Source: Candidatus Doudnabacteria bacterium (GTDB lineage Bacteria; Patescibacteriota; Doudnabacteria; UBA920; VMFF01). From it: a stretch of 64,000 nt of DNA. Made by a program: the position numbers and the translations under genes. Positions 23,812 to 49,508 of the stretch are shown piece by piece. The first letter of the stretch is position 1; each line of letters begins with the position of its first letter. The DNA lies in assembly GCA_028286905.1 (NCBI GenBank), contig JAQBQP010000003.1:23317-87316 (forward strand), given 5' to 3'. The notes under the pieces are model-generated. The model was given only the letters and a program-made list of their open reading frames with translations, did not search any database and was not told the origin of the DNA.

Positions 23812-24119
23812 TGTTTTTGATGCTTAGCGAGTAAAATGCAAATTTAAATTGGTTTGCGAGAAACTCGACTAATTTCTAACCACAAGTGTTTTGCTTCCCA
23901 AGCATGACAGATATTGCCTTTTATGTCAATGATCTTTTCTTGGCATTATCACCAATCTACCCTTGATTTAATCCATAATTTGTTGTATGATGAGCACATC
24001 AAATTCCCAGGAGGATATACAGAAAAGGAAAGAAGGTTCAGAAAGAAACGAAGCGCAGGAACGAAGCGGTCCAAGCCAACCCGGCTAGGACTTTCCATCC
24101 GAACCACCGGAACCTGATC

Positions 24120-24992
24120 ATGCAGACTCGACACACCGCACGTCTCAAGGCGATCGCAGCAACGATCGCTTTCGCAGTGATGGCCCTGTTCAGCTCAGCT
24201 GCCACGCTGGCCGCGCAGAACACCATCGTCACGCCGTCGAATCCGCAGGGATGGGCGGCGAACAGCATGTCTGGCGCGGCGACCGTTGGCATCACCAACG
24301 CGTTCCCGTTCAACGGAAACGGTTCGGTGGAGTTTACCAGCACCGGCCCCGCCGACCGTGCCCGCTGGCAGTTGGATCTCAGCCAGAACCTGCAGTCACT
24401 GGCGAACCTGGACAGCATCGGCATGAGCATGTTTCAACTGTCCAGCAACACCGGCAACCATGCGATCGTTCCGGCGATGAAGGTTCTGATCTATGACCCG
24501 CTCAACGCCCACGGCGTCTTCTTCACCGAAATGACCTGGGAATGGTATCTGAACAACCCCACGGGCACGTTCGCGGTGGACTCCTGGACCGGCGTCGACC
24601 TGATCAATCAGAACTGGTGGATCTCGCAGCTCGGCGGCAACCACACCAATGCCGACTGCAGCACCGGCTCGAACAGCGATCCGAACAGTCCGTTGGCGCT
24701 GGCGACCATCTCGCACTGGTCGAATACCTGCTATTCGCCAAGCGCGAAGTTCTACGCGATCGCAGCGGCCGCAGGCAGCGGCTGGACGGGCACCAACATC
24801 TTCGGAGTCGATAACGTCTACTACCAGGTGCGCGGCTCGTCGTTGTATTCCGCGAACTTCGAAGTCGCTGGATCGACCACCACTGCTCCGGAACCGGCAA
24901 CCTTCGGGCTGACCGCCACCGGCATCCTCAGCATGATCGGCGTCGGCGGAAACCACAGGCGTCGGCGTCGGAAGGCCCTCAACCCGGTCTGA
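24120..24992 (+). CDS. Secreted PEP-CTERM domain protein on a high-GC island (~60% GC).
   Basis: Cleavable signal peptide; C-terminal PEP motif (TAPEPATFGL) + TM helix + Arg cluster (HRRRRRK). Sharp compositional break from neighbours. Confidence 0.6.
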   Translation: MQTRHTARLKAIAATIAFAVMALFSSAATLAAQNTIVTPSNPQGWAANSMSGAATVGITNAFPFNGNGSVEFTSTGPADRARWQLDLSQNLQSLANLDSIGMSMFQLSSNTGNHAIVPAMKVLIYDPLNAHGVFFTEMTWEWYLNNPTGTFAVDSWTGVDLINQNWWISQLGGNHTNADCSTGSNSDPNSPLALATISHWSNTCYSPSAKFYAIAAAAGSGWTGTNIFGVDNVYYQVRGSSLYSANFEVAGSTTTAPEPATFGLTATGILSMIGVGGNHRRRRRKALNPV

Positions 24993-25040
24993 AGAAGACG
25001 GGCACCGGCAGTAGCTTCTTGCTTTTCTATAGTACCCGCG

Positions 25041-25087
25041 AAACCGGGGGCCAGCACATCTGCTGTCCCCCGGTTTTCCCTTTTATC
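25041..25087 (+). terminator. Terminator of the PEP-CTERM island gene.
   Basis: aaccggggg...cccccggtt stem followed by ttcccttttat. Confidence 0.65.
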
Positions 25088-25177
25088 TAGTATTCGTTAG
25101 CACCTTAGTTATAAAATTATCTATATATCTAAATAGCAATATCCTGTAAACTTAAACTGTGCAATTAAAAAGAACTT

Positions 25178-25954
25178 ATGCAATCTAAAAATAACAAATT
25201 TTTTAGCGCCGTTATGGCAATCGCGGTAATAGGCGTTTTATTTTTTTATTATAAACATCGCGCAAATCAAAGCGCGGCACTTGTACCGGAACAGCTGACA
25301 ACAAATTCAATTCCTGAAACACCCGCAGTGCCGTCCCAAAATAATTCCGGGAATCCTACGACAAGCAATCCCCCCGCAACAAACCAAGTGTTATTAAAAA
25401 TACCTTTTACTTCTCAAGCGCCTACCGGCAATTGGGATACTTTGCATAATGAAGCCTGCGAAGAAGCGGCTGCAATAATGGCAAACGCTTATTTAACCGG
25501 CGACACCCGAGCAACTTTACCAGCCTCCGAAGTTGAAAAACAAATCGGTACTTTGACCGATTGGCAGCAAAAAAACTTTGGTTATAATTTAGATACTACT
25601 GCTGCAGAAACCGCAAAATTTATTGAAGCAGTTTATGGGCTTAAAACAAAAATCGTTTCAGACTACACTGAAAGCGATTTAAAAATGGAATTAGCGGCTG
25701 GGCATCCAGTAATTTTGCCCGTTAACGGCCAACTGATCGGCAATCCGTATTACAAACAACCGGGACCAATTTACCATATGCTTTTAGTTCGCGGCTATAC
25801 AGCGACTAAAATTATTACCAATGATTCTGGTACCAGGCATGGTGAAAATTATTTATATAGCTTTAATACCTTAAGCAATGCTGCCGCGGATTGGAATCAT
25901 TCTACTAATACTATTGATAGTTCAAAAAAAGTAATGATTGTCGTTTATAAATAA
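25178..25954 (+). CDS. Membrane-anchored papain-like (C39-like) cysteine peptidase domain protein, paralog 1.
   Basis: N-terminal TM; Q...C (NEACEEAAA), His (YHMLLVRGY) and Asp/Asn (ITNDSG) triad arrangement. Confidence 0.5.
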   Translation: MQSKNNKFFSAVMAIAVIGVLFFYYKHRANQSAALVPEQLTTNSIPETPAVPSQNNSGNPTTSNPPATNQVLLKIPFTSQAPTGNWDTLHNEACEEAAAIMANAYLTGDTRATLPASEVEKQIGTLTDWQQKNFGYNLDTTAAETAKFIEAVYGLKTKIVSDYTESDLKMELAAGHPVILPVNGQLIGNPYYKQPGPIYHMLLVRGYTATKIITNDSGTRHGENYLYSFNTLSNAAADWNHSTNTIDSSKKVMIVVYK

Positions 25955-26630
25955 AAACATAACGATGCCAAAAACAAACATCACTAAAACTATATTAATA
26001 ATTGCGCTAGGTCTAGCGATCGGAGCAATTGCTTACAATAAAATCCATCCGAAAGCCCTAGCTCAAAGCATTACATTAGCGGTTCCTTTTAGCGCCCAAG
26101 CCCCGAATGGGAATTGGGATCGAAATGAAGATTGCGAGGAGACCAGCATTACTATGGCAAATGCTTATTTAACCGGAACAACCGAAGACAAACTTCCTGC
26201 AGATGCGGCACAGCAAGCGATTAACAATCTTAAAAGCTGGGAACAAAAAAACTTAGGATATAACGCAAACACTGGTGTAGATGCTACCACTAAAATGGCA
26301 GCGGGGGCATTTGGTTTAAAAATTAAACCGCTGGTTAATTTTACAGAAAATGATTTAAAAACAGCTTTGTCGGATAACAAACCGATTTTACTTCCAATCA
26401 ACGCTCGACAATTAGGCAATCCAAAATACCAGGACACTGGACCGCTTTACCATATGATTGTTTTGCGCGGATATGATGGAGATAATTTTATCGTCAATGA
26501 TCCAGGCACTGAAGGCGGTGATGGCAATAGCTACACTTTTAGCATTCTGAAAAATGCTGCCGCGGATTGGAATCAAACAACCAAGTCGATGGATGCGACA
26601 AGAAAAATAGCGTTGATCGTTTCCAAATAA
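25938..26630 (+). CDS. Membrane-anchored C39-like cysteine peptidase domain protein, paralog 2; overlaps the end of paralog 1 by 17 nt.
   Basis: Same motif set (NEDCEETS..., YHMIVLRGY, IVNDPG). The two proteins are clearly homologous over ~200 aa. Confidence 0.5.
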   Translation: MSFINKNITMPKTNITKTILIIALGLAIGAIAYNKIHPKALAQSITLAVPFSAQAPNGNWDRNEDCEETSITMANAYLTGTTEDKLPADAAQQAINNLKSWEQKNLGYNANTGVDATTKMAAGAFGLKIKPLVNFTENDLKTALSDNKPILLPINARQLGNPKYQDTGPLYHMIVLRGYDGDNFIVNDPGTEGGDGNSYTFSILKNAAADWNQTTKSMDATRKIALIVSK

Positions 26631-28605: not shown

Positions 28606-30369
28606 CTAACTGTTTCTATTTCCGTGTAAAAGCATTTCTACGGCATGTTCCATTGAACCGGCAGGAGTAACTTCTCCACCGTTAATGAAGAATATTTCGT
28701 CAGCGTTTTCGATTGTGTTTAACCGATGCGCAATTATTACGCGAGTGGTTTCTTTCGGAAGTTTTTTAAGAATATCTTCGAGCAGTTGTTCGGTAACTGT
28801 ATCAATGTTTGCAGTAGCTTCATCAAGAATTAACAATTCAGGATTTCTTAACACCGCACGAATAAAGGCAATCAATTGTTTCTGACCTAAGCTCAGTGTT
28901 CCCCCGCTAGCAGAAACTTTTGTTTCTAGACCTTGGTCAAAAATGTTTAGCAATGTTTCTAAACCTGATTTTTTAATCACTTCTTCTAATTCTGGGATTG
29001 AATAATCTTTGTATTCAGGATTGCCGTAAAGAATATTGTCTCGAATTGTTCCGGTAAACATAAAAGGCTCTTGTAAAATAAACCCGATTTTTTTGGTACG
29101 CGCTGCCGGATCATAAGAACGGATATCTTTGCCATCCAAAAAAACAGTTCCTTCAGTTGGATCATACAAACGCGCCATCAAAGAAGCCGTAGTAGTTTTA
29201 CCGCCGCCAGTTGGACCAACCAAAGCGTAAGTTTTGCCGCGCTCCAATTCAAAGTTCACATTATGCAGAACAGTTTTGCCATCTGGATAACCGAAATTAA
29301 CGTTTTTAAAAGTTAAAAGCTTACTGTTCGGAGCTGATTCGTTTGATGGAACTGTTACTAAGTCAGATTGCAGATCGATAATATCGTGAATACGATCCCA
29401 GCCTGCTAACGCTGTTTGGAAATCCGACCAAATCGTTGCCATCTGTCTTAACGGGTTGTAAAGAATAATTACATAAGTTAAGAAGCTAATCAGCGCGCCG
29501 ATAGAAATTAAATGATGCGTAATCAAATATAATCCGTAGGCAATAATAATTAACTGAGCGATGCTTGAAGCAAAGCTGTAGGTGGGAGTTAAGGTATTGT
29601 TTGCAATTCCTGCGGAAACTGCAGAATCATAATTTACTTTATTAACTTCGGCGAATTTTTCTCTGAAATAATCCCGACGATTAAATGCTACCACTACTTT
29701 AAAATTTTCTAAATTTTCTTGAATCCCGGCACTCATTCCGCCAGTGCTTTTTAAATTGATTGCATTCTTTCTTTTAATCCAGCCTGAGAGAATCACAGTA
29801 ATAACTAGCAGAATGGCTGCAGGTGCAAGCATTGCCAAACCTAAGCGCCAATTAATTACCAGCACAAAAACGGCGGCGCCCACAATACTGATAATCCCGC
29901 TAACAAATTGGATTAAGCTTCGAGCAAAGAATTGGTTTAATTTATCAGTGTCATTGTTTATACGAGAAATTAAATCTCCAGCTTTATTTTGGTTAAAGAA
30001 CGCCACTGGCAACTCTTGCAGCTTATTAAATATTTCATTTCGCAGTTTAAACAATAGGTTTTGACCGATTGTACCCATCACTAAAGTTTGGAAATAATTC
30101 GCAATTGCAGCGCCGATGTATAAAGCTAACAAGTAACCTGAAAAAACTAAAACACCGTGGAAATTTCCAGTTTGAATATATTTATCGATTACTCTTGCAA
30201 CCAACAATGGCGCAACTAAAGTAAATCCGGCATTTACTAGTCCGGTGATTCCAGACAGAATCAATCTTTTTTTGTCATCTTTTAAAAGCGGGCCTAGTTT
30301 GCCAAGCGCCTCCATAAGACCAGCTTCTTTTTGTTCGCCGTGCGGCTTATTTAAGGTGTAATTATTCAT
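28606..30369 (-). CDS. ABC exporter, fused permease + ATPase (heterodimer partner 2).
   Basis: 6-TM N-domain; Walker A GPTGGGKTT, signature LSLGQKQ, Walker B ILDEAT. Confidence 0.9.
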   Translation of the reverse strand: MNNYTLNKPHGEQKEAGLMEALGKLGPLLKDDKKRLILSGITGLVNAGFTLVAPLLVARVIDKYIQTGNFHGVLVFSGYLLALYIGAAIANYFQTLVMGTIGQNLLFKLRNEIFNKLQELPVAFFNQNKAGDLISRINNDTDKLNQFFARSLIQFVSGIISIVGAAVFVLVINWRLGLAMLAPAAILLVITVILSGWIKRKNAINLKSTGGMSAGIQENLENFKVVVAFNRRDYFREKFAEVNKVNYDSAVSAGIANNTLTPTYSFASSIAQLIIIAYGLYLITHHLISIGALISFLTYVIILYNPLRQMATIWSDFQTALAGWDRIHDIIDLQSDLVTVPSNESAPNSKLLTFKNVNFGYPDGKTVLHNVNFELERGKTYALVGPTGGGKTTTASLMARLYDPTEGTVFLDGKDIRSYDPAARTKKIGFILQEPFMFTGTIRDNILYGNPEYKDYSIPELEEVIKKSGLETLLNIFDQGLETKVSASGGTLSLGQKQLIAFIRAVLRNPELLILDEATANIDTVTEQLLEDILKKLPKETTRVIIAHRLNTIENADEIFFINGGEVTPAGSMEHAVEMLLHGNRNS

Positions 30370-32134
30370 AGTGGTTCGTGCTTCGCTGTGAATTATAAAT
30401 TTGAACGTATTCTGGTGAGGTCTGCATTAATTGTTGATGGGTACCTGCGGCCAATACTTCCCCTTCCATCAACAAAATAACTTGATCATATTGTTCAATC
30501 GAAGAAATCTTCTGAGTCACTGAAATTAAGGTAATACCGGGATAATTTCTTGCGACATTCGCCAAAATCTTTTGCTCAGTCTTGTTATCGACTCGGGCAG
30601 TAAAATCATCCAACAAAAGAACTTTTGGATTAAGTGCCAGCGCTCTAGCAAGCATTATTCTTTGCTTCTGTCCGCCAGAAAGGCTGGTGCCTCTTTCCGA
30701 AACGATTGTTTCCAACCGCTCTGGAAGACTGTCAATAAAATCATGCAGCTCTGCGGTATCAATCGCCTTTTGCATTGCTTGGTCAGTAACTTTAGTATTG
30801 AAAGCGATGTTTTCTCTTAAGGTTAAATTAAAAATGATGCTGTCTTGAAAAACAAAACCGACCTGATTATGCAATGCTTCTTTTTGATACTTTTCAATAT
30901 TAATCGAATCATATTCAATCTCGCCGCTAGTTGGTTTAATTAAGCCAGTTAACAAGTACAGCAGCTGAGTTTTTCCAGCAGCCGTTGGGCCGATAATTGC
31001 TGTTTTTGTTCCGGCAGCCACGGTAAACGAAACATCCTTAAGTGCTTTCTTCTCTGCAAATGCTAAAGTAATATTTTTAACTGAGACCTCGCCTTTCAAA
31101 TGATCTTTAACCAAACCATCCTCTGCTGGTTCCGGAGCATCTAAAACCGCGCCGATTCTGCTATAAGATGCGGTTGCCTGAGCAATAACGTTGCTCATAA
31201 TTCCAATCACTAAAATCGGAAAAATCATCAAAGAAAGATAGGTGTTGAAGGCGGTAAAGTCTCCCAAGGTCATACTTCTTGCAATAACAAAGTGTCCACC
31301 AAGTAAGACAATAATTAAAGTGGCCATATTCACAAGAAATGTAATGGCAGGAATTAATCCGGCAAACATTCTTAAAATACTAAAACCAACATTGCGCGCT
31401 TGGGTATTTGCAGAAACAAATTTATCAAATTCCGGTTGTTGGGAATTTAGGACTCTTATCAAAGCCGAGCCTAAAATACTTTCATTAATAACTTTATTTA
31501 AACGATCAATTACTTCGCGCGAATTAATCATGAAGGTTCGAACTTTTTGAAGAACAATAAAAAATACCGCGCCAATCATTGGCACCACTGCGATAACCGC
31601 AAGCGCCAATTTCCAATTTATGCTCAAAAGCAAAATTGAAGCGCCAATTACTACAATAATCGAAGATACGATCGAAACGATCGCTTGGGCCACAAAAGTC
31701 TTAACTGAATCAATATCCGAAGTTAAGTTGGTAAGAATTTTACCTGGAGAAATTTCTTCAATGAAGGCAAAGCTTTGGCGAGAGATTTTTGCTGCCAAAT
31801 TTTCACGCATATCCTTAGCAACTTTTTCAGAAACAAATGTTTGCATGATGCTTTGAAAATAGGTAAAAGCAAAAATTACGAAGGCTACTCCGCCAAATTG
31901 CCAGATAAAAGTATTTACGTGGAAAGCGCCTTTAACATAGTGGTCGATTGAGTGTGAAATAATTTTAGGCAGAACCAGTCCCGCTGCGCTGCTGACCACT
32001 GCAAAAAAAGCCAAAATTGAAATTAGCTTAGTGTAAGGTTTTAAAACACTTATTAGGGTTGATTGCGGTTTATCCGGCTTATTTTCTTGCTTGTTTTTTT
32101 CCTTATTGAAGTTTTTTTGATTCGGTTTAGACAT
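30362..32134 (-). CDS. ABC exporter, fused permease + ATPase (heterodimer partner 1).
   Basis: Walker A GPTAAGKT, signature LSGGQKQR, Walker B LLLDDFT; overlaps partner by 8 nt. Confidence 0.9.
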   Translation of the reverse strand: MSKPNQKNFNKEKNKQENKPDKPQSTLISVLKPYTKLISILAFFAVVSSAAGLVLPKIISHSIDHYVKGAFHVNTFIWQFGGVAFVIFAFTYFQSIMQTFVSEKVAKDMRENLAAKISRQSFAFIEEISPGKILTNLTSDIDSVKTFVAQAIVSIVSSIIVVIGASILLLSINWKLALAVIAVVPMIGAVFFIVLQKVRTFMINSREVIDRLNKVINESILGSALIRVLNSQQPEFDKFVSANTQARNVGFSILRMFAGLIPAITFLVNMATLIIVLLGGHFVIARSMTLGDFTAFNTYLSLMIFPILVIGIMSNVIAQATASYSRIGAVLDAPEPAEDGLVKDHLKGEVSVKNITLAFAEKKALKDVSFTVAAGTKTAIIGPTAAGKTQLLYLLTGLIKPTSGEIEYDSINIEKYQKEALHNQVGFVFQDSIIFNLTLRENIAFNTKVTDQAMQKAIDTAELHDFIDSLPERLETIVSERGTSLSGGQKQRIMLARALALNPKVLLLDDFTARVDNKTEQKILANVARNYPGITLISVTQKISSIEQYDQVILLMEGEVLAAGTHQQLMQTSPEYVQIYNSQRSTNHYE

Positions 32135-32554
32135 CTATTTTAAATTTTCTATAATTTTAAGTTGTAGTTTTCGAAGTTGTTCCAACTCCGCATCGGTCAA
32201 AGATGAAAAGATCTTAACAAGCGATTCCATTCGTTTTTTCTTTGCTTGGTTTAAAATGGTCTTGCCTTTGGCGGTCAAAGAAACAACTACTTTTCTACGA
32301 TCAATTTTATCCTCTTCACGTTTAAGCATTCTATCTTTTACCAACCCATCTACTAACTGAGCGGCAGCGCTGGCCGTAATAGTGAAGCATTCAGCAAGTT
32401 CTTTGATGCTTTTATTGCCATCAGAAATGATCATCAGTAAAGACAACTGCGCCCTGGTAAGCGGCGCTTTGCCGGCATGGTCCCCTTTGAACATTAGCTT
32501 GCGCATTGAACCCATGCTTATTAATATTTCAGCGGTGATCTTATTTCGATCCAT
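32135..32554 (-). CDS. MarR-family transcriptional regulator, first gene of the ABC exporter operon.
   Basis: Winged-helix core (LTRAQLSLL...ELAE...TASAAAQLVDGLVKDRML.R..D..DRR). Confidence 0.85.
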   Translation of the reverse strand: MDRNKITAEILISMGSMRKLMFKGDHAGKAPLTRAQLSLLMIISDGNKSIKELAECFTITASAAAQLVDGLVKDRMLKREEDKIDRRKVVVSLTAKGKTILNQAKKKRMESLVKIFSSLTDAELEQLRKLQLKIIENLK

Positions 32555-32587
32555 AGGCTTTTTCGATTAAATCAAATTACATTAGTT

Positions 32588-32628
32588 ACTTCACTATATA
32601 GTAGCTAATGTAATTTGTCAATAATAAA
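32588..32628. promoter_or_regulatory. Imperfect inverted repeat (aattacattagttac N11 gtagctaatgtaatt) 34-74 bp upstream of the MarR gene; candidate MarR operator.
   Basis: 15-bp arms with 1 mismatch, seen directly in the sequence. Confidence 0.5.
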
Positions 32629-32713
32629 AGACTGGGCGCAGCATCAAGAATCACGCCACTCAGTTTACCAAGGGTACTTTTTGCCTTTATGAAACTGTTT
32701 TCATAAAAATAAT

Positions 32714-33043
32714 TTAATCGTTTTCCAAAACCAACATCGGATAAATATCAATTACAACTTCTTCATACGGATGCACGGCTTTGATCGCTTTTATAAGACC
32801 CTCAACTTGATCACGTTCACAAGCGACTTCAACTCGTTCTTCAGCGACTGCTTCTAATTTACCCACTTCCCCAATTGCAGGATCAGCGCCTTGTTCCGGC
32901 TTGAATCGTCCGATTCCCTTAGTTGAGAAACTACAAAAAGTATAATTTCCTATTTTGCCGGCCCCGGCTTCGCCAATGCTTTGACGCAAAACATCGGCAT
33001 GAGTTTCTGGAACAAACACTACAATTTTTACAAATTCTTTCAT
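32714..33043 (-). CDS. Small protein resembling the conserved C-terminal module of NIF3/YbgI (CutA/PII-like fold).
   Basis: GAGKIGNY..CSF and HPYEE motifs. Confidence 0.35.
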   Translation of the reverse strand: MKEFVKIVVFVPETHADVLRQSIGEAGAGKIGNYTFCSFSTKGIGRFKPEQGADPAIGEVGKLEAVAEERVEVACERDQVEGLIKAIKAVHPYEEVVIDIYPMLVLEND

Positions 33044-33117
33044 AAAATGATTATAACAAAAAATACAAATCTCGGTAGAGCATAAATGCCGGATTTGTAT
33101 TTTCTGTTATTGTTCAA

Positions 33118-33579
33118 TTATTTTACTGAGTCAGCTGCATCTGTTGGATCAACAGCGCCGAGGTGACCGTGACCATGGCCACCTGCTTCGGTAGCGGTAA
33201 CGTTAAAGTTTCCATCCAACTTTACGGTTACTTCTGACCCGTCAGACTTAGTCATGTGCACTTCATAAGTAGCACCTTCTGCGTCGTTCTCAGCTCGATC
33301 GATGGTAGCGCCTGGAACAGCGGCTAGTGCAGCGGCGTTAGCTTTAGCTGCAACATCCCCTGTTAACAAGGTTTCCTTAACTCCATTCTGGCCGATATGT
33401 CCGCCCTTGGTGCGGTCGAACTGTCGGGCCGGAGAAGTGTTTGGGCTTGCGGTGGTCATGGCTGGGGTTGTTGTAGTGGTATCTGTAGCGGCATGTGTTT
33501 GAAATCCGATAGATACCATGGTCCCTGCCATTAGACCAACGCCTGTAAGCAATACTGCGGTCTTTTTTGATATATTCAA
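33118..33579 (-). CDS. Secreted PepSY-like domain protein with a C-terminal His-rich tract (GGHGHGHLG).
   Basis: Signal/TM anchor; PepSY-like YEVHMTKSDGSEVTVKLD motif; HGHGH cluster. Confidence 0.45.
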   Translation of the reverse strand: MNISKKTAVLLTGVGLMAGTMVSIGFQTHAATDTTTTTPAMTTASPNTSPARQFDRTKGGHIGQNGVKETLLTGDVAAKANAAALAAVPGATIDRAENDAEGATYEVHMTKSDGSEVTVKLDGNFNVTATEAGGHGHGHLGAVDPTDAADSVK

Positions 33580-33752
33580 TAATTTACTCTCCTTATAATT
33601 ATTAATAATATTTCCTTCGGACTCGACCTATTGCCTCGAAGTAATATCATCATAAGATTTGCCAATGAAGTGAAGATGAAGGAATAGATTTTGTTGTGGA
33701 TATTCTTTTTTCGCTCTAATCTGGCATTTGCTTATTCTGCGGGGTGTTTGTT

Positions 33753-35279
33753 TTATACCAATCCAGGGAAAAAATCAGTTTTAATGTTTTTGTACGAAAC
33801 CCCTATTTGAGAAAGTTCTTCCTTGATGGCGCTAACCATTTGATGCGATCCAGAAATATAAAATTTTCGTTCTTTAAAATCTGGAATCTCTTTACTAATC
33901 ATTGCAGCGTTTATAAAACCACGGGACCCACGCCATTCTTCTGGAATTCGATCCAGATCAGTAAGCGTATAGATCGTACTAAAACCTAACTGCTGATAAG
34001 CCTGATTAAACAATTCCCAATACGCTACTTCTTCAATCCTACGATTTGAATAAAGCATTTTAAGATCGCGCTTTTCGTTCTTGTCGACTAAATACTTAAT
34101 CATGCTTCGGAATGGCGTCACGCCAATACCACCGGCGATAAAAGCTAATTTATCTTCCTTGTTATTAGGCAAAGTAAATTCCCCTGCCAACTGGCCTGCG
34201 GTAATGACATCGCCTGGTTTTAAATTTAACATTTCTTTTTTAAAACTGCTGGAGTTTTCGTAAAATTTTACACCTAAGAGAACCTCTGATTCTGTCGGTG
34301 AAGAAGCAAGCGTAAAATATCTGCGATTGCCACGACTATCCGGCTTATTGTGTCCTAAGGTCCATTCCATATATTGACCGGCTTTGAACTTAAACTTTTT
34401 TTCAGTTTCCATAACAAAATCAAAAACTCCGGTACTCGCCTCTCTAACCTCTTTAATCACAAAAACGTGGCGCCCCTTTGGGCTTACTAGGTATGCAAAA
34501 ACGTTTCCAACTAATAACGCTAGCTCTGGGCTAAAATAAGTTTGCCCAAAGTGCACTAACGGGCTAAACAACATTCCAACTAAAACTCCATAAGCAATTC
34601 TGCCATCGCGATTGGGCGGCATCGTTAAAGGTTCAGTAAGCATTACAAAAACAAAAAATAACAGCGGTGAGCTACTAAAAGCTTTGAGCAACGAAGTAAC
34701 TATATGGCCATTTACGGAACCAATTGTTATTGTCGTTAAAATTACCGCGATTAAAAAAGCGACTGCCAAATCAAACTGGCGCAGTTTTCTTAGCATTAAA
34801 ATTCCACCAATTAAAACAAATGGCAACAGTGACGCCGTGCCAACCCACCAACTAGCAGAAGCGCCGATTGCTATTCCGGTAACCGCAACAGCTAAAGCCG
34901 CAGGATTAAAAATATGTTTTTTGCCAATATTTATTAAAAACTTTGATGCCATTGCGACAATACCAGCCAAAAAATAAAAAGGTAACACCGACAAATATTG
35001 CCCGCTTTCCGGCGGACTTATAATTAACGCCAAAATCAAAGCTGTAATAAGGGATGATTCAATGTTAATCGAAACTTTAAACAAGCTTCCTAAAACTTTA
35101 TTTGAAATCCAGCAAATTACAACCAAGATCAAACTGGAATAAATAATTGCAATTGGGGCGTAGGGCAAAATTGCTAAAGCGCTAAGTGCAACCGCCGCTA
35201 ACAATAAGCCAATTAAATAATAAAGTACCAGCCGGTACATTGTTATTCGATCAATAATTTTATCAATTAGTTTAAACAT
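33753..35279 (-). CDS. Polytopic membrane protein fused to a C-terminal ferredoxin-NADP-reductase-like FAD/NAD(P)-binding module. Start adjusted from 35351 to the MFKLIDKII Met at 35279.
   Basis: ~8 TM helices; RRYFTLAS (RxYS FAD site); GGIGVTPF (NAD(P) GxGxxP). Confidence 0.65.
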   Translation of the reverse strand: MFKLIDKIIDRITMYRLVLYYLIGLLLAAVALSALAILPYAPIAIIYSSLILVVICWISNKVLGSLFKVSINIESSLITALILALIISPPESGQYLSVLPFYFLAGIVAMASKFLINIGKKHIFNPAALAVAVTGIAIGASASWWVGTASLLPFVLIGGILMLRKLRQFDLAVAFLIAVILTTITIGSVNGHIVTSLLKAFSSSPLLFFVFVMLTEPLTMPPNRDGRIAYGVLVGMLFSPLVHFGQTYFSPELALLVGNVFAYLVSPKGRHVFVIKEVREASTGVFDFVMETEKKFKFKAGQYMEWTLGHNKPDSRGNRRYFTLASSPTESEVLLGVKFYENSSSFKKEMLNLKPGDVITAGQLAGEFTLPNNKEDKLAFIAGGIGVTPFRSMIKYLVDKNEKRDLKMLYSNRRIEEVAYWELFNQAYQQLGFSTIYTLTDLDRIPEEWRGSRGFINAAMISKEIPDFKERKFYISGSHQMVSAIKEELSQIGVSYKNIKTDFFPGLV

Positions 35280-36018
35280 AATATTTTTTGAAACCAGTGG
35301 TCTCAGTAGCAATCCGATCTTTATTAATTTGATAACCTTCAAGTCCAGCAATCTTTTCTATAAAATAAATTCCATCATTGCCCATTGCAAATGCTGCGGT
35401 CGCAAACCGATCTGCTTCATAAACATTTGGGCCTATTACCGTAATACTAACGACTTCGTTTAGTTTAACGTCTGAATCTTTTGGATTATAAATATGCGCT
35501 CCCCTAGTGTACGAACCTGAAGTTGCTAAGCCTTGATTATGCAACTGCAATACTTTCACGATTTCCTTTTTATCAAAAGGGTTTTGAATGCCAACCTGCC
35601 AGGCTTCCGCTTTTCTATTCGGACGCTGAACCTGAATGTCTCCTCCAGCATCAATATAATAATTTTTCGAACCATGCGATTCCAAAAGTTTTGCTGCGTT
35701 CAAGATTGCCCAGCCTTTAACTAATCCAGAGGGATCTAGTTTGTGATCTGGAGTATATACATCGAAATACCCTTCAGTTTGTTGCTTGGTTTGTTCCGAA
35801 AGCTCCAAGACTTCACGCATTTCTGCGCTATAATGTTCAACAGAAGTTTTTCCTTGGTTTATCAAGCTTACTTCACTAGTGTCTTTGTAGGTGCTAAATT
35901 TCTGATCAATAGAAATGAAATAATTAAATACTTTTTCAAGTAAACCAATGTCTGTTTGATCAAGCACCTCAATCGTAATCGGCATACCCATAATAATTCT
36001 AATGTCTTTCATTGGCAT
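35272..36018 (-). CDS. apbE: FAD:protein FMN transferase (ApbE family).
   Basis: ApbE family assigned by motif recall only; I could not reliably locate the canonical signature residues in the translation. Confidence 0.75.
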   Translation of the reverse strand: MPMKDIRIIMGMPITIEVLDQTDIGLLEKVFNYFISIDQKFSTYKDTSEVSLINQGKTSVEHYSAEMREVLELSEQTKQQTEGYFDVYTPDHKLDPSGLVKGWAILNAAKLLESHGSKNYYIDAGGDIQVQRPNRKAEAWQVGIQNPFDKKEIVKVLQLHNQGLATSGSYTRGAHIYNPKDSDVKLNEVVSITVIGPNVYEADRFATAAFAMGNDGIYFIEKIAGLEGYQINKDRIATETTGFKKYYV

Positions 36019-36503
36019 TAAACTTTTGCTCTGGCTAAAGCTGCTGCTAAAGATTCACGAAAAGCATTACTTGTATCAGTCGCTCTGGAAACAATGTTAA
36101 CGTTTGCACTCTGCGCGGAGATTGCTTCAGATTTTAAAAGCGGCATTGCTCTGCTGTTAATCTGAATTGACTCGCGTTGATCATTTGGGTATTGCAAAAA
36201 CTGTACATCAGTCAATTTTCCATTCTGAATAACTGCACTAACTTGAATGTTCCCATAATAAGCATCGGCAATTGAGCCGGTATAACTGCCATCTTTATAT
36301 TGGCCATTTTGGATTGCAACCTTAACAGCTGCTGCTGGCGTTGAGCTGGATGGGGTTAGAGGAACTGTTATAGGAATAGCGCTAGACGTCGTTGTAGATG
36401 CTGTAGACGAAGCGACAGAGCTAGACTTAACAAGCCCGCGCTGATAGAACAGATGCAGAATAAATAACACCACCATTGAACCGCTCAATAAATACTTTTT
36501 CAT
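36018..36503 (-). CDS. Membrane-anchored extracytoplasmic FMN-binding domain protein; predicted ApbE substrate.
   Basis: FMN_bind-like pattern DGSYTGS...GNIQVSAVIQNGKL...SANVNIVSRATDTS, with the flavinylation-site-like S(R)AT(D)T. Confidence 0.7.
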   Translation of the reverse strand: MKKYLLSGSMVVLFILHLFYQRGLVKSSSVASSTASTTTSSAIPITVPLTPSSSTPAAAVKVAIQNGQYKDGSYTGSIADAYYGNIQVSAVIQNGKLTDVQFLQYPNDQRESIQINSRAMPLLKSEAISAQSANVNIVSRATDTSNAFRESLAAALARAKV

Positions 36504-36656
36504 TCCTATATCCTTTTTAACAGTTTACTACATTTTAACATCCCAATCATTATACATTTTATTGATGAAGATTTCATGAAGCGACAAAAAGGAACATCAA
36601 TCGAAGATCAATGTTCCGTTTACTTTTGCCTGGCGACCGGATTGACCGCCAGTTGA

Positions 36657-37202
36657 TTAAGCACTTCCCTGCAACGAATTAGTATTATTTAAAATAGATT
36701 TCGCTTCCTCTTCTCGCGCAGTCCAACTTTCTGGTTTTAACGCTGCAAAGTTTGTTTTAATTATTTCTTGTAGTTCTGCTGGCATCGCTTTAGTAAAATT
36801 ACCAGAGTAGGTAAAGCGCAGTTTTTTCTGCCAATCAGCAGGCAGCAACCCTCGAATTTGGGGCATTACTTCTTGAGGTGCAAACAAATAAAACCAATCG
36901 AACTTATTATCTCGGGAAAGTTCTTCGACTTTAGTTTTAAATTGCACTGAGAAATCGTGCCGCTCACCGGTATCCTTCTTTTCATTATCGGACGAAGTTC
37001 CCAGCGCAGATATAGAATTGTCGCGACCCCGATAACCTTCGGCGTCTGTGTAAACAGTATGTTCGACATGCACTACCGGTTCCGGAGTTAATCGACCATC
37101 TTCAAATTTATACATCTTAGCAATATGCTCGCCGCTAACAATTATTAAAGAGGTTTCATCTTGCAAGGGTTCCTGGTAAGTATCGTTGTGGTATATTTCC
37201 AT
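36657..37202 (-). CDS. Hypothetical protein (181 aa).
   Basis: Complete ORF with its own terminator (36585-36618). Confidence 0.5.
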   Translation of the reverse strand: MEIYHNDTYQEPLQDETSLIIVSGEHIAKMYKFEDGRLTPEPVVHVEHTVYTDAEGYRGRDNSISALGTSSDNEKKDTGERHDFSVQFKTKVEELSRDNKFDWFYLFAPQEVMPQIRGLLPADWQKKLRFTYSGNFTKAMPAELQEIIKTNFAALKPESWTAREEEAKSILNNTNSLQGSA

Positions 37203-37272: not shown

Positions 37273-37315
37273 TAAAAAAACAGCACCCGCCGAATGCTTA
37301 TTGCACTCGGCGGGC
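37273..37315 (-). terminator. Terminator of the EEP island gene.
   Basis: cccgccga...tcggcggg stem followed by a T7 run on the minus strand. Confidence 0.65.
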
Positions 37316-37321
37316 GACGTC

Positions 37322-38263
37322 CTATTCGGACTCATAGTCGAGCAAGGCCATCATTGGATAATGGTCGCTCGGATAGATTCCCCCTTTGTTGTCTTTCACA
37401 AGTACGCTGTTCAGAACCTTGAAGCCACGAACGAAGATCCATTCGGTATCCCAGGTTCCCCAACCATCTCCCCGATAGTCCACTCCCTGGAAACCGTGGT
37501 AAGTCATCGGCCGGCGCAACGAAGTCAGCTGACCCAACACCCTCCCCTGATTTGGATCATAGGGATGAGCAGCAATCCAGGTGTCGGTAAATCCGGCCTT
37601 GACCATCATGTCGTAGGGCCGGCGCATATCTGGATCCCCCCAACTGCGTTTTTCGGGATCTGCCCAACGCTGGTGCGGCGAGCCAAGAGTGCCCTGAGGC
37701 GAGCCCACGCTGACATTGCTGTCAGCAGTGATAATCGTCGGCAAAGGCCGATTTGAGCGAAAATTTCCTTCAGCAAACTGCAAAATCAATCGCACGCCTT
37801 CAGCCCGAGCAACTATTCCTTTGTTGTCCAAGTGAGCGTTGATGTGCAGAAAGGTTCTTCTCATTGCCCGATCTAAAACAAGCACCCAACTAGCACCGTG
37901 CTCGACGACGCCATCCCAACCCTTCTTGTAGCTACCATCGTCGCTGAGCCAGAAAGTCCCCCGCTCAATCAGTTCGAAACGAACCGGGTCGAAAGCAATC
38001 GGATTGATGAAAATGTCACCGGCCTCTTCGCCGTAGTAGACATCCATCTCGGGATGACCTCGATGCAAACTGTTCCAGCTGTTACGCTGCTCAGGGTTTT
38101 CCGGATCTTTGCGACCAAATTCCTGGAAACCCACCAAACCGACCGGCATGTTGCCAAACACTTCGGTGGCAAGATCGGCTCGCTGCTTCCACCCCATCCA
38201 CGCCTGGCCAGCAACGTTGAACGTCGCCACCCAGAACAATGAACCATCCGGTTTGATAACCAA
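37322..38263 (-). CDS. Endonuclease/exonuclease/phosphatase (EEP) family protein on a high-GC island. Start chosen at the MVIKPDG Met at 38263 (a TTG start at 38271 and an ATG at 38230 are alternatives).
   Basis: EEP signatures (N-terminal Asn/Glu, HINAHLD, C-terminal SDHYPMMA); own terminator 37273-37315. Confidence 0.7.
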   Translation of the reverse strand: MVIKPDGSLFWVATFNVAGQAWMGWKQRADLATEVFGNMPVGLVGFQEFGRKDPENPEQRNSWNSLHRGHPEMDVYYGEEAGDIFINPIAFDPVRFELIERGTFWLSDDGSYKKGWDGVVEHGASWVLVLDRAMRRTFLHINAHLDNKGIVARAEGVRLILQFAEGNFRSNRPLPTIITADSNVSVGSPQGTLGSPHQRWADPEKRSWGDPDMRRPYDMMVKAGFTDTWIAAHPYDPNQGRVLGQLTSLRRPMTYHGFQGVDYRGDGWGTWDTEWIFVRGFKVLNSVLVKDNKGGIYPSDHYPMMALLDYESE

Positions 38264-38340
38264 TCTCGCACCCTTTGCTAAAGTGTGAACTGCCTATGCA
38301 GCGGCATAGGCGATTTATGATTATATCGAATTTTGAAAGA

Positions 38341-45755: not shown

Positions 45756-46736
45756 ATGAGCATAATGAATAGAACAAAATATTTTGATTATGCAGAAGGA
45801 AAGCTGGTTAACCTTGCTCATGCAATTACCATTAATGGTAAGCTCAACCTTTTGCATTTGCATACTCACGCTGAAGAGTTTTATCTTAATTTTTTTAGAG
45901 AGCTATATAAATGGGATTTAAAAAATCTCAATGCTGCTAAAAGGAATTCTGAAGCTGTTGATTTAATTTCTGAGTCTGCAAAAGTTATAATTCAAGTATC
46001 AGCAACTTGCACGAAGGACAAAATAGAATCTGCTCTAGGTAAAAAAGTAATCGAAAGATATAAGGACTATAGCTTTAAGTTTATTTCCATTTCATCAGTG
46101 GACGCAAGTCAGTTAAGAGCAAAGGTTTTTAAAAACCCTTACGGGATATCATTTAATCCCGTCGTTGATATATACGATACAACTTCTATAGTTGCTAATA
46201 TTTTAAGTCTTGAGGTTGATCGCCAAAAAGATATATACAAGTTTCTTAAAAAAGAGCTTGGTCAAGAAATAGATATTGAAAAATTGGATTCAAATTTAGC
46301 GACAATTATAAACATTCTCTCTCAAAAAAACCTAGATCAAAACGATCAGCCAATTACAATAAACGGTTTTGAAATAGAACGTAAGATTTCCTTTAATGAT
46401 CTCAAGACTGCACAATATGTGATTCAAGATTATGGAATACACCACAATCGAATTGACAAGATATATTCTGAGTTTGATGAATCAGGAGTTAATAAAAGTA
46501 TTTCAGTATTGGGGTGGATTAGAGGAGAATATGTAAGGAATATGTCTGTAAAAAAAGATGATGAGCTTTTTTTCTTAATTGTAAAAAATATACAAGAAGT
46601 CATTATGCAGAGTGCGAATCTTGCGTCGATAACAATTGAAGAATTAGAGCTTTGCGCTAATATATTAGTTGTCGATGCCTTTATTCGTTGTAAAATCTTT
46701 CGAAACCCAAAAGACTACAAATATGCTACTACCTGA
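45756..46736 (+). CDS. Component A (326 aa) of a three-gene candidate defense operon; putative effector, possibly nuclease-like.
   Basis: Strongly AT-rich relative to flanks; start of a translationally coupled trio; no secretion signal. Confidence 0.55.
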   Translation: MSIMNRTKYFDYAEGKLVNLAHAITINGKLNLLHLHTHAEEFYLNFFRELYKWDLKNLNAAKRNSEAVDLISESAKVIIQVSATCTKDKIESALGKKVIERYKDYSFKFISISSVDASQLRAKVFKNPYGISFNPVVDIYDTTSIVANILSLEVDRQKDIYKFLKKELGQEIDIEKLDSNLATIINILSQKNLDQNDQPITINGFEIERKISFNDLKTAQYVIQDYGIHHNRIDKIYSEFDESGVNKSISVLGWIRGEYVRNMSVKKDDELFFLIVKNIQEVIMQSANLASITIEELELCANILVVDAFIRCKIFRNPKDYKYATT

Positions 46737-46950
46737 TAATATACATCCAGAAAATACTATTTATTTTAATGGAGCTTTTGTCCTTAAGGAATTACAGAGA
46801 CAGCCTGACCAAGGCCTACTAGATTTATATGAGAATGTAAAAAGACAAAGAAATTTAAGCTTTCCTATTTTTATTCTATGCTTAGATTGGCTTTATTTGC
46901 TGGGCGTAGCTGAAACAAATAATCAAGATAAAATAAAATTATGTTTTTAA
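46723..46950 (+). CDS. Small middle ORF (75 aa), overlapping gene A's stop by 14 nt and gene B's start by 10 nt; candidate kleisin-like / middle component.
   Basis: ATG at 46723; TAA at 46948-46950 overlapping the ATG (46941) of the ATPase gene. Confidence 0.35.
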   Translation: MLLPDNIHPENTIYFNGAFVLKELQRQPDQGLLDLYENVKRQRNLSFPIFILCLDWLYLLGVAETNNQDKIKLCF

Positions 46951-48671
46951 AGTCGTTAATAATATCAAGTAAAGGGAATAATATTCGGGAAATTATTTTT
47001 CGAAAAGGACTTAATTTAATTGTTGATGAAACTCCCGAAATTAGCGGCAAAACCACAGGAAATAATGTTGGAAAAACAACCGTTTTAAAGTTGATTGATT
47101 TTTGCTTGGGAGCTGATCCTAAAAATGTATACATTGATCCAGAATCTCGAAAGGATAATTACGATCTTGTTAAAAACTATTTAATAGACAAGCATATCCT
47201 TATTACGTTAGTGTTAAAAGAGAATTTAGATTTAGAAAATTCTTTCGAAATTGTTATTGAAAGAAATTTTTTGGCTCGTAAAAATAAAATATTAAAAGTT
47301 AATCAAGAAAATTTAACCGAAGATGAATTTGAGCAAAAGCTTTTGCAATTAATTATTCCAGGTCATAATGAAGAAAAACCCACATTCAGACAAATAATAT
47401 CACACAACATCCGCTATAAGGATGAGAGCGTGAGCAATACTCTTAAAACATTAGATAGATATACGACCGATATAGAGTATGAGTCATTATATTTATTTTT
47501 GTTTGGGTGCAAATTTACAAAAGGAGATTCTAAGCAATTAATTTCTGAAAAGTTAAAACAAGAAACTACTTACAAAAGCAGGTTAGAAAGACAGCAGACA
47601 AAAACCGCATATCAGGCCGCTCTTAATATTATAAATTCTGAAATTGAAGATTTAAATAATAAGAAAGCGGATTTAAATATAAATCCAAACTTCGAAAATG
47701 ACTTGGATAAGTTGAATGTGATCAAGTATGAAATTAATAAAACAAGCTCTGAAATAAGTAAATTTACTATCAGAAAAAACTTGATAATAGAAGCTGAACA
47801 GGAATTAGATGCTAAAAAGTCAGTTATTGATTTAGTTCAGCTGAGATCCATATACCAACAAGCCACCGAACAAATAAGGGGTATACAAAAAACATTTGAT
47901 GATTTAGTAAATTATCACAACCAAATGATATTTGAAAAAGTAAAGTTTATTAAAAAAGAACTTCCGACTATAGAAAAATCCATACGAGAAAAGCAGATTA
48001 ACCTAAAAGAACAGCTGCGAGAAGAAGAAGTACTTACTTCAAGCATCTCAAAAAGTGATTCATTCGAAGCGTTGGAGAGCTTGATCGCAGAACTAACTGA
48101 AAAATTTAGAAAAAAAGGGGAATATGAGAGTATCATCAAACAGTTAATTGAGGTTGAAAAAAACATTGGGGAATATACTGCTCAACTTGATGAAATAAAT
48201 GATGAATTATTTTCAGGTGATTTTGAACAAAAAGTTAAAGATCAATTAGATAAATTCAATATTATTTTTGCCAGTATATCAAATCAGTTATATGGTGAGC
48301 CATACGCAATAAAGCACGACATAATTACCAATACCAAAAACCAACGTTTGTATAAATTTAGTGCCTTTAATACAAATTTAAGCTCTGGCAAAAAGCAAGG
48401 TGAAATTTCCTGTTTTGACTTGGCATATACGTTGTTTGCAGATGAAGAACGTATCCCTTGTTTACATTTTTTACTTAACGATAAAAAAGAATTAATGCAC
48501 GATAATCAGTTGGTAAGAATTGCTAACTTTGTAAGCAATAAGAACATACAGTTTGTAGCCTCAATGCTAAGAGATAAATTACCAGAAGAGCTGAACCAAG
48601 AGAATTATTTTGTAGTTAAGCTTTCTCAGCAAGATAAATTATTTAGAATTGAAGAGAATAATCAAATCTAA
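46941..48671 (+). CDS. SMC/Rad50-like ABC ATPase with a long coiled-coil insert (576 aa); component B of the candidate defense operon (LmuB / ABC-3C ATPase-like).
   Basis: N-terminal Walker A GNNVGKTT; ~250-aa heptad-rich K/E/L region; C-terminal signature-like LSSGKKQ, a degenerate Walker B (FLLND) and a His (LMHD). Confidence 0.65.
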   Translation: MFLKSLIISSKGNNIREIIFRKGLNLIVDETPEISGKTTGNNVGKTTVLKLIDFCLGADPKNVYIDPESRKDNYDLVKNYLIDKHILITLVLKENLDLENSFEIVIERNFLARKNKILKVNQENLTEDEFEQKLLQLIIPGHNEEKPTFRQIISHNIRYKDESVSNTLKTLDRYTTDIEYESLYLFLFGCKFTKGDSKQLISEKLKQETTYKSRLERQQTKTAYQAALNIINSEIEDLNNKKADLNINPNFENDLDKLNVIKYEINKTSSEISKFTIRKNLIIEAEQELDAKKSVIDLVQLRSIYQQATEQIRGIQKTFDDLVNYHNQMIFEKVKFIKKELPTIEKSIREKQINLKEQLREEEVLTSSISKSDSFEALESLIAELTEKFRKKGEYESIIKQLIEVEKNIGEYTAQLDEINDELFSGDFEQKVKDQLDKFNIIFASISNQLYGEPYAIKHDIITNTKNQRLYKFSAFNTNLSSGKKQGEISCFDLAYTLFADEERIPCLHFLLNDKKELMHDNQLVRIANFVSNKNIQFVASMLRDKLPEELNQENYFVVKLSQQDKLFRIEENNQI

Positions 48672-49508
48672 ATAGTTTAATAGGATGTCGAAAATATCAA
48701 CTTTCATCTTTTTCGTAAGCTCAACTATTTGCTCATCATATAAAAATAGTTTGGTGGAGGCTGCGGCCGTCCCTCACGGGACTGCAGCTCTCCTACAAGA
48801 ACGCCCGGCAATTGCCATGGCAATCAAAATGCAGCGCTTTAGGCGCTGCATTTTGATTGGTGGAGATGGCGAGAGTTAAACTCGCGTCCAAAAAGAATTC
48901 CCCTAAAAATTGATCACAAGCTTAGCGTCCTTTGATACTTTGAAGCAGCAAGAACGCGAAATAACTTCAAAGTTGGTTTACTGAGTTTCTTCCGGTTACG
49001 GCAAACCAACGTCGCCGGTATATCCTATAAATAAAGTGCGGGATCCACCGCTATAGAAAAACGGAGGGCGCACGTCCCGACCTAAGTTAGGCTAGGACCA
49101 ATGAAGGAGTAGCGAATGCAGTTTGCAACGCTCTCTTCATTGTGGCAAAAGAATTGCCAAATATGAGTTTTTCTCAAGAATGTTACGAGGTTCTGAGAAT
49201 ACTCGGCTTGCGTATTTTCAAGGTTCAGCTCTCTGTCAAAATCCGGCATCCCCATGTTCCTGCTTTTGCAGGGATCAACATTATTACATATTTCGGGCTT
49301 AAAATCAAGGCGAACATCTTAAACTCCAGCTACTCTATCCTACCCTCTTTGCATGACTAAAAACTCTTAGGCAAACATCTAAACTTATCCGTGCCTTATA
49401 GATCTTTCGTACAAATTATTTACAAAGTTCCGCTAACCACAGGCTAGGAATTGAGCACAATGCCCAATGTCAAAGCCCAAGCATATGTATAAAATAGATA
49501 TTACCAGT

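Follow-up and report, generated by a model that had tools for sequence, protein, structure and literature searches.

The 64,000-nucleotide (nt) stretch of Candidatus Doudnabacteria DNA analysed here (hereafter the window; contig JAQBQP010000003.1, positions 23,317 to 87,316, with coordinates below counted from its first letter) carries three overlapping minus-strand genes, A, B and C, which probably make up an NQR/RNF-like flavinylated transmembrane electron-transfer system, a class known from bioinformatics only. Gene A encodes a flavin mononucleotide (FMN)-binding subunit, gene B an ApbE flavin adenine dinucleotide (FAD):protein FMN transferase, and gene C a fusion of an NqrB/RnfD-like membrane domain to an FNR/NqrF-type NAD(P)H module. 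A fourth gene, D, encodes a secreted PepSY-domain protein and is an accessory neighbour at most, outside the core machine. The system has already been described, and nothing at the window locus is architecturally new. The coding features are as follows.

36018..36503, minus strand: gene A, NqrC/RnfG-like FMN_bind subunit, 161 amino acids (aa) (PF04205; alignment to PDB 8p2a)
36078..36089, minus strand: predicted flavinylation motif S139-R140-A141-T142 of gene A, codons TCC AGA GCG ACT (alignment to SGAT of 8p2a)
35272..36018, minus strand: gene B, compact ApbE FAD:protein FMN transferase, 248 aa (PF02424)
33753..35279, minus strand: gene C, NqrB/RnfD-like plus FNR/NqrF-like fusion, 508 aa from ATG (PF03116 and PF00175)
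34476..35279, minus strand: N-terminal half of gene C, aa 1-268, NqrB/RnfD-like, 10 transmembrane (TM) helices (PF03116, RnfD homology, AlphaFold2)
34845..34859, minus strand: outer loop S141-A-S-W-W145 of gene C, family consensus Q-S-A-[S/T]-W-W, in the place of the deleted RnfD/NqrB flavin loop
33753..34475, minus strand: C-terminal half of gene C, aa 269-508 plus stop, FAD-binding barrel and NAD(P)H Rossmann domain (PF00175)
33118..33579, minus strand: gene D, secreted PepSY-domain protein, 153 aa (family alignment; AlphaFold2/Foldseek fold)

An earlier sequence-only reading of this DNA had called the same four open reading frames (ORFs), and all of them are present where it placed them, as are the strings RRYFTLAS, GGIGVTPF and GGHGHGHLG in their translations. 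The overlaps it reported among the first three genes are equally real: the stop codon of A and the start codon of B share the sequence TAATG, and the end of B and the start of C overlap by 8 nt. Because these stop and start codons overlap, A-B-C is a translationally coupled operon. The start of gene C was set at the ATG at 35279, which is backed by the N-termini of its family; a longer ORF opening with TTG at 35351 has no support from these N-termini and was rejected. That reading's identification of the FMN_bind, ApbE and FAD/NAD(P) domains is likewise borne out by Pfam, NCBIfam and PDB alignments.

The membrane half of gene C belongs to the NqrB/RnfD family. Residues 147-265 match the Pfam model NQR2_RnfD_RnfE (PF03116) with 41.7 bits against a cut-off of 27.7, and the archaeal RnfD model rnfD_Methano of NCBIfam aligns over residues 16-265. 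Similarity extends to the solved A. vinelandii RnfD (PDB 8ahx_D, E=1e-5) and, at the level of the family profile, to E. coli RsxD (hhalign probability 93%). An AlphaFold2 model built with 37 family members (pLDDT 86.8, pTM 0.80) contains ten membrane helices followed by an FNR fold. The predicted inner loops hold nine Lys/Arg residues and the outer loops none, and by the positive-inside rule gene C is therefore predicted to have both termini inside, which puts its FNR module on the cytosolic side and its SASWW loop on the exterior.

By alignment, the outer loop that carries covalent FMN in RnfD and NqrB has been deleted from gene C. RnfD/RsxD residues of about 143-226, an outer loop of ~70-80 residues containing S-Q-A-T187, have no counterpart; in the alignment to the solved RnfD, the gap covers RnfD residues 143-212. 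The helices flanking the lost loop are joined by the ten residues G-A-S-A-S-W-W-V-G-T. In the profile alignment, E. coli RsxD runs from VQMTSW through ~80 aa including SQAT to LAGGVW, whereas gene C reads GASASWWVGTASLLPFVLIGG. Both W144 and W145 are invariant in the family, and the consensus Q-S-A-[S/T]-W-W has a loose similarity to x-[GAS]-A-[S/T], with which flavinylation motifs end. The SASWW loop could be a flavin-contact site. As a relocated flavinylation site it was rejected, since it aligns to the V-Q-M-T-S-W helix end of RsxD and not to S-Q-A-T187.

The C-terminal half of gene C matches NAD_binding_1 (PF00175) over residues 380-486 with 57.7 bits, and NCBIfam and PDB alignments reveal a complete FNR/NqrF-type FAD and NAD module over residues of about 269-506. 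The FAD domain of NqrF in the PDB is recovered with E=6e-14, and Foldseek gives TM-scores of 0.72 to NqrF and 0.83 to Fre. Invariant residues of the family lie in the motifs RRYFTLAS, GGIGVTPF and the C-terminal DFFPGLV.

Gene A has the layout of an NqrC/RnfG-type subunit: an MKK start, a conserved TM anchor, a Ser/Thr/Pro-rich stalk and a C-terminal FMN_bind domain (PF04205, 29.6 bits against a cut-off of 22). The domain aligns with the solved FMN-binding domain 8p2a over 86 residues (E=1e-11), and V-S-R-A-T-D-T-S of gene A falls onto V-S-G-A-T-Y-T-S of 8p2a, from which T142 is the predicted FMN-attachment residue. Lys/Arg residues flanking the TM helix average 2.27 on the N side and 1.08 on the C side (75 family members), and most of the acidic residues are found on the C side. 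The stalk of the family has a median length of 68 aa, of which 72% are S, T, P, A, G, N or Q. Because of these flank charges and the P/T/A/S-rich stalk, the topology is predicted to be N-in/C-out, with the FMN_bind domain facing outward. The motif columns are strongly conserved in the family (S in 71/74, G in 73/74 and A in 74/74 members); the last position is T in 64 and S in 10, so that the flavinylatable residue postulated by the sequence-only reading is preserved in all 74.

Gene B encodes an ApbE protein by both profile (PF02424, 140.7 bits) and alignment to E. coli ApbE structures. It has the ApbE fold with its FAD/Mg2+-binding and catalytic motifs, including KG(W/Y)A, TSGSY, (A/S)H(I/V)xxP and EADxxxT.

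To place the operon in a wider context, we turned to its relatives. An NCBI protein encoded on a 92-kb contig of a metagenome-assembled 'Candidatus Doudnabacteria' genome is 100% identical to gene C, which has at least 595 relatives in species-representative genomes (one genome per species); a search with the membrane domain alone yields 388 clusters (50% identity, E below 1e-30). The neighbourhood counts for A-B-C rest on the best 80 loci of these at least 595 relatives, of which 47 are labelled as lineages of the Candidate Phyla Radiation (CPR) and 8 as Chloroflexota, including the cultured Dictyobacter aurantiacus. Complete CPR chromosomes with the operon include OY970354.1, OY970175.1 and OY970290.1. 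The order and orientation A-B-C are kept in 72-73 of the 80 loci. Since these loci are independent, the association is far beyond chance. The exceptions are mostly contig ends, and a few have A followed directly by C. No other conserved neighbour of A-B-C emerged from all-against-all clustering of the flanking ORFs of the 80 loci, and thus the functional unit is a set of three genes. The loci without ApbE, in which the FMN_bind gene directly precedes the fusion gene, are L002, L022, L030, L032 and L063; the other Doudnabacteria loci, L002 and L063, are both of this type, and L063 and L033 each carry two FMN_bind genes.

These features coincide with a published class. In Méheust 2021 (eLife, PMC8238504), an 'NQR/RNF-like' flavinylated system is defined by a PF03116 and PF00175 fusion inside an ApbE/FMN_bind gene cluster. 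Gene C joins both domains in one protein, and the FMN_bind and ApbE genes lie immediately upstream of it, overlapping. Huang 2024 (PMC10979944) describes the system as having two subunits only, with an RnfD-like subunit that lacks the flavinylated Thr of NqrB/RnfD, as gene C does, and with an [S/T]GA[S/T] motif on the NqrC/RnfG-like subunit; in gene A the acceptor Thr aligns to SGAT, but the motif reads S-R-A-T. In its AlphaFold-multimer model, the NqrC-like flavinylation site lies beside the vacated flavin site on the outer face. Thus, the window copy shares with the known class its architecture (the domain fusion, the adjacent FMN_bind and ApbE genes and the two structural subunits), the occurrence in CPR bacteria and the lost flavinylated Thr; SRAT in place of SGAT and the PepSY gene immediately downstream are specific to the window.

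We then propose a mechanistic model in which electrons would be driven by NAD(P)H to an extracytosolic acceptor, as the domain content suggests. The cytosolic FNR-like module of gene C, whose domains are readily recognised, would oxidise NAD(P)H and load its FAD. Electrons would then pass one at a time through the NqrB/RnfD-like ten-helix domain, probably via a non-covalent flavin, by homology to the riboflavin of NqrB/RnfD. Because gene C has lost the covalent-FMN loop, the outer flavin would come from subunit A, a type-II anchored protein with FMN presumably linked to T142 through a phosphoester bond by the ApbE of the operon, using FAD and Mg2+. According to the docking model in Huang 2024 (PMC10979944), the flavin of A would dock into gene C. 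The tethered FMN on its Pro/Thr/Ser-rich stalk would finally reduce an extracytosolic acceptor, for which the best guess is Fe(III) for assimilation and the alternatives are free flavins, quinones and O2. The product of gene D, a secreted PepSY protein of the Rv0603/UipA type, may be an accessory and is possibly metal-binding. Iron is weakly suggested as the acceptor by the VIT1 genes associated with six published clusters (Méheust 2021, PMC8238504), by a VIT1 gene near one D homologue and by the metal-binding relatives of the PepSY protein. A self-contained route from NAD(P)H to a flavinylatable FMN_bind protein, as the sequence-only reading had pictured for genes A to C, fits both the domains and the predicted outward topology.

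The same logic is found in the Listeria Ndh2-EetAB-PplA-FmnB system, in which electrons from cytosolic NADH reach a surface FMN_bind protein flavinylated by an ApbE-family enzyme. Listeria employs Ndh2, a dedicated quinone and EetA/B for this purpose, whereas a single RnfD-FNR fusion spans the membrane in the window. Moreover, FmnB and PplA of Listeria are lipoproteins, whereas the ApbE of the window has neither a lipobox nor a signal peptide.

Three points weigh against the assignment of A-B-C to a working system of this class. First, no member of the class is known to have been studied experimentally, and its cofactors, electron direction and acceptor are deductions; for CPR bacteria, a literature search turned up no experiments on the NQR/RNF-like system. 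Second, R140 of gene A (codon AGA, 36084-36086) is the sole non-Gly residue in its column among 74 family members, one G-to-A transition away from GGA. In another ApbE target, a Gly-to-Ala change in the motif brings flavinylation down to about 50%, and the SRAT copy may be poorly or less efficiently flavinylated, or R140 may be an assembly error. Third, the ApbE of the cluster has no export signal throughout the family, although its target, the FMN_bind domain, is predicted to be outside.

The third point deserves closer attention. ApbEs that serve NQR, RNF or extracellular electron transfer typically carry a signal peptide or lipoprotein signal that directs them out of the cytosol. In gene B we looked for a signal peptide, a lipobox and a TM or internal hydrophobic segment and found none, and its ORF cannot be extended upstream because its start codon overlaps the stop codon of A. 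The ApbE of the cluster is ~247 aa long, begins with MKETRxxMGMP at the start of the catalytic fold and is leaderless in 74/74 copies, an observation that covers the window and loci L001-L080, L085 and L090-L092. The 120 best database homologues of gene B are also leaderless, at 236-260 aa under four independent gene callers; two more short ApbEs from long contigs again sit within A-B-C clusters. Of the extracytoplasmic flavinylation assumed in the sequence-only reading, the outward orientation of the FMN_bind domain stands as a prediction; the leaderless ApbE, which that reading had not noticed, leaves the way in which such a domain is flavinylated unexplained. This discrepancy goes unmentioned in the available parts of Méheust 2021 (PMC8238504), Huang 2024 (PMC10979944) and the 2025 ApbE review.

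The options are three: flavinylation in the cytosol before translocation, an FMN_bind domain that faces inward, or export of ApbE by another route. The first two amount to an alternative in which the FMN_bind domain and ApbE both act in the cytosol, so that A is flavinylated inside and then exported, or stays inside to shuttle electrons from the FAD of the FNR module to the membrane domain. This alternative is unlikely, and it is the leaderless state of ApbE, in the clusters and in the 120 short homologues alike, that speaks for it, along with the fixed start of gene B. Cytosolic ApbEs are known, only with cytosolic targets, and a 7-residue linear tag suffices for ApbE; an unfolded chain could therefore in principle be modified before translocation. 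Gene A, however, has the MKK start, TM helix and N-side Lys/Arg bias described above and a P/T/A/S-rich stalk of the kind typical of surface proteins. Furthermore, we know of no precedent for Sec export of a flavinylated chain. Gene A is also homologous to the outward-facing NqrC/RnfG, and the AlphaFold-multimer model of Huang 2024 docks it on the outer face. Natural A-B, B-C or A-C fusion proteins would fix the sidedness of ApbE; neither the 120 best homologues of ApbE nor the 150 top matches to the membrane domain include one.

Having weighed this alternative, we retain the outward-facing NQR/RNF-like system, and turn to gene D, which the sequence-only reading had counted as the fourth member of the module. 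A gap of 173 nt separates gene D from the end of gene C, which precedes it on the same strand. Gene D has a ribosome-binding site of its own, AAGGAG, 8 nt ahead of the TTG start at 33579, and its product from there is 153 aa long; the NCBI record of the protein has 133 aa from an internal Met, with the signal peptide cut off. The product comprises a signal-peptide-like N-terminus, a Thr-rich linker, a PepSY domain and a GGHGHGHLG tail. Its profile scores fall just under the curated cut-offs (Pfam PepSY 18.1 against 24; NCBIfam PepSY_MTB 55.8 against 60). The PepSY assignment holds through its homologues, which carry PF03413, and through its AlphaFold2 core (pLDDT 93-98), which has the PepSY fold of one helix and four strands. 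The best PDB match in Foldseek is M. tuberculosis Rv0603 (43% identity over 69 columns, E=2.5e-4), and UipA is second. Profile and fold together thus place gene D among PepSY-domain proteins.

Gene D shares the PepSY fold with Rv0603 (PDB 2LRA) and with the U/Fe-binding UipA of Microbacterium (PDB 7ATH), and its surface is acidic like theirs, with 12 Asp/Glu against 7 Lys/Arg. It differs from them in having one PepSY domain, a signal peptide instead of a TM anchor and an N-terminal GGH(V/I)GxNG motif. The gene D family (722 matches) consists of small secreted proteins from Actinobacteria, CPR bacteria and soil metagenomes. Conserved in it are the GGH(V/I)GxNG motif and the PepSY core, which includes acidic residues that never vary, as well as a single His, in YEAHMTK, that is likewise invariant. 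Towards the C-terminus the sequences diverge into variable, Gly-rich tails, and the GHGHGH tract is not among the conserved features. The tail had been proposed as a metal-binding-like tract, a proposal that this variability does not bear out. Since the soluble PepSY proteins UipA and LanP bind Fe3+/uranyl and lanthanides, respectively, metal binding by gene D through carboxylates rather than through the His tail is a reasonable lead by analogy.

Gene D had also been linked to PepSY-associated flavinylation systems, and here two protein types were conflated. The 'PepSY-like' systems of Méheust 2021 (PMC8238504) have PepSY_TM membrane proteins (PF03929/PF16357), usually with DUF2271, and occur in Gram-negatives; gene D is a soluble PF03413 protein. 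PF03929, PF16357 and PF10029 found no match in the eight scanned proteins, and gene D matches only PF03413, below threshold.

Is gene D part of the machine after all? A module of all four genes, with the secreted His-rich PepSY protein as an indispensable partner of the flavinylated protein or as the final acceptor of its electrons, is improbable. The same strand, the 173-nt gap and the lack of any terminator-like site between C and D on the minus strand in a terminator scan favour it, and D may be read through from C for the latter reason. Further support comes from the Fe3+-, uranyl- or lanthanide-binding PepSY proteins of the UipA/LanP type, UipA being the second-best structural match, and from regulatory links in other genomes that are considered below. 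In contrast, a D homologue lies within 5 kb of gene C in 0/80 loci, flavinylation genes are lacking in 6/7 contexts of D homologues, and the His tail is unconserved; for the first and last of these reasons D is not a core member. Downstream of D in L086 come MarR and a pair of ABC exporter genes, a block that the window has on the other side of D. The synteny comprises the PepSY gene, a small gene, MarR and the two ABC exporter genes (ABC_membrane and ABC_tran; window 28606-33043). L012, too, has MarR and a pair of ABC exporter genes after its A-B-C operon. Thus, of the proposed four-gene module three genes stand; the PepSY protein drops out as fourth member and keeps only the looser regulatory link seen elsewhere.

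This link involves an extracytoplasmic function (ECF) sigma factor. In 5/7 contexts of D homologues, an ECF sigma gene is accompanied by a gene for a 170-250-aa protein without a Pfam match, presumably the anti-sigma factor. Orthologous sigma/anti-sigma pairs, at 44-57% identity, lie on the same strand directly upstream of A-B-C in L005, L013, L017, L022, L067 and L091. On contig L090, the sigma, anti-sigma-like and A-B-C genes share one strand, with a 179-aa gene and D divergent from them, all within 5 kb. A shared motif, TGAAA[TG]-N17/18-[TCA]GTAnTA[AT], occurs 17 times in 1.83 Mb against ~3 expected, almost always a short way ahead of one of these sigma genes, a D gene, an A gene or a MacB-type exporter operon; its assignment to the sigma factor is based on position alone. 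In a position-weight scan, 7/74 regions upstream of A score above the 1% background level. The ECF sigma and motif observations span L005, L013, L017, L022, L067, L082-L084 and L089-L091. Together, these results lead us to infer a shared ECF-sigma regulon, in a subset of genomes, for A-B-C and genes of the D family. Neither an ECF sigma gene nor the ECF-type motif was found when both were searched for in the window, which also counts against a four-gene module here; with the 1% background threshold at 18, position-weight scores in the window reach no more than 10.1 in front of A and 6.5 in front of D.

Occasional neighbours in other genomes hint at redox or metal functions: a VKOR gene (L092 6330-6746) directly after C, a VIT1 gene 2.3 kb from a D homologue on a JGI 580-kb contig, and a CsoR-like repressor and P-type ATPase (L089 5347-7634) near another D homologue. 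In a broader picture, a family-wide cytosolic ApbE would flavinylate A before its C-terminal domain crosses the membrane (or the flavin domain would work inside), and the operon and a secreted, possibly metal-binding PepSY protein would belong to one ECF-sigma regulon for envelope or metal stress, pointing to iron reduction. We regard this combination as unlikely.

It is highly improbable that A-B-C is what remains, or forms one part, of a canonical RNF or Na+-NQR pump whose other subunits are encoded elsewhere. The homologies are genuine: both halves of gene C are related to RnfD/NqrB and NqrF, and gene A to RnfG/NqrC. Canonical RNF (RnfABCDGE) and Na+-NQR (NqrABCDEF) thus share with the window system the RnfD/NqrB domain, the FMN_bind subunit, the NqrF-type module and ApbE-dependent maturation. 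The window system, in contrast, is without the RnfA/E or NqrD/E iron-sulfur path, RnfB/C, NqrA and the 2Fe-2S domain; the alignments to NqrF begin only at NqrF residue ~120-250, and the NAD(P)H module is fused to the RnfD-like domain. The loop that bears covalent FMN on the D/B subunit of the pumps is deleted from gene C, and the operon lacks the six-subunit organisation. The canonical complexes have a semicircular ion-pumping path, whereas one-way electron export is predicted for the window system. With no other conserved gene in the 80 loci and unrelated Pfam families as immediate neighbours in the window, the view is upheld that the FNR-like protein has not simply strayed from a canonical NQR, RNF or urocanate-reductase complex as one of its subunits.

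Least probable of all is a haem-based transmembrane ferric reductase of the MsrQ/NOX/FRD-like or PepSY_TM/FoxB-like type, for although the overall order, with the membrane domain first and the FNR module at the C-terminus, recalls the NOX/FRE layout, and bacterial NOX appears at low TM-score in the whole-chain Foldseek search (rank 33), PF01794, PF03929 and PF16357 are unmatched, the TM domain matches PF03116 instead, and its three histidines (H122 in an inner loop, H243 in an outer loop and the unconserved H192) lie in loops on opposite sides of the membrane. This arrangement excludes bis-His pairs: no intramembrane haem-ligating pair of the kind envisaged by the sequence-only reading, two of which characterise MsrQ-like and ferric-reductase proteins, was found in the TM half of gene C, and a haem-b protein identity was therefore rejected. 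The domain is NqrB/RnfD-like, and electron transfer would be flavin-based.

The transcription signals around the operon are as follows.

36549..36577, minus strand: candidate sigma-70-like promoter for A-B-C, ATGAAA-17-TATAAT (10/12 consensus match)
36591..36617, minus strand: terminator-like hairpin and T-run ending the upstream baeRF_family12 gene (12-pair stem, then TTTTTGTCGC)
33057..33102, minus strand: AT-rich hairpin and T-run past gene D (recognised by eye: AAATACAAATC...GATTTGTATTTTTT)

The hairpin at 36591..36617 sets the upstream gene apart from the A-B-C operon, and the promoter candidate comes after it; such promoter sites number 15 against 13.4 expected, which makes the candidate weak evidence. 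The hairpin past gene D, which the terminator scanner left unscored for its too few G-C pairs, may mark where an A-B-C-D transcript ends. In the vicinity of the operon, neither Rfam nor tRNA scans detected a riboswitch or any other RNA element.

The gene upstream of the operon (36657-37202) is a release-factor-like baeRF_family12/Host_attach match (29.9 bits against a cut-off of 27.7). A tmRNA gene lies at 48858-49253 on the minus strand (Rfam RF00023, 115.5 bits), which ARAGORN did not report. The GC content of the window is ~0.40, with local departures to 0.50 at 24001-26000, 0.30 at 46001-48000 and about 0.45 at 37300-38300, around an Exo_endo_phos-like gene (37322-38263) with long shadow ORFs; these three patches may have been acquired horizontally.

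Three aspects are absent from the available parts of Méheust 2021 and Huang 2024: the leaderless ApbE of the cluster, the recurrent ECF sigma/anti-sigma link and the strong share of Chloroflexota. The main interest lies in the leaderless ApbE and the ECF/PepSY link, both of which are family-wide and not specific to this locus. They raise questions for the whole class, namely where and by which route a leaderless ApbE attaches FMN, what fills the vacated flavin site of the RnfD-like subunit, and whether the system belongs, along with small secreted PepSY proteins, to an envelope or metal response under ECF-sigma control. If flavinylation indeed preceded translocation, surface flavoproteins would be made without export of FAD, which would suit genome-reduced CPR bacteria. 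CPR bacteria, or Patescibacteria, have no respiratory chains, and a compact route from NAD(P)H to the cell surface would therefore be one of their few redox links to their surroundings or hosts.

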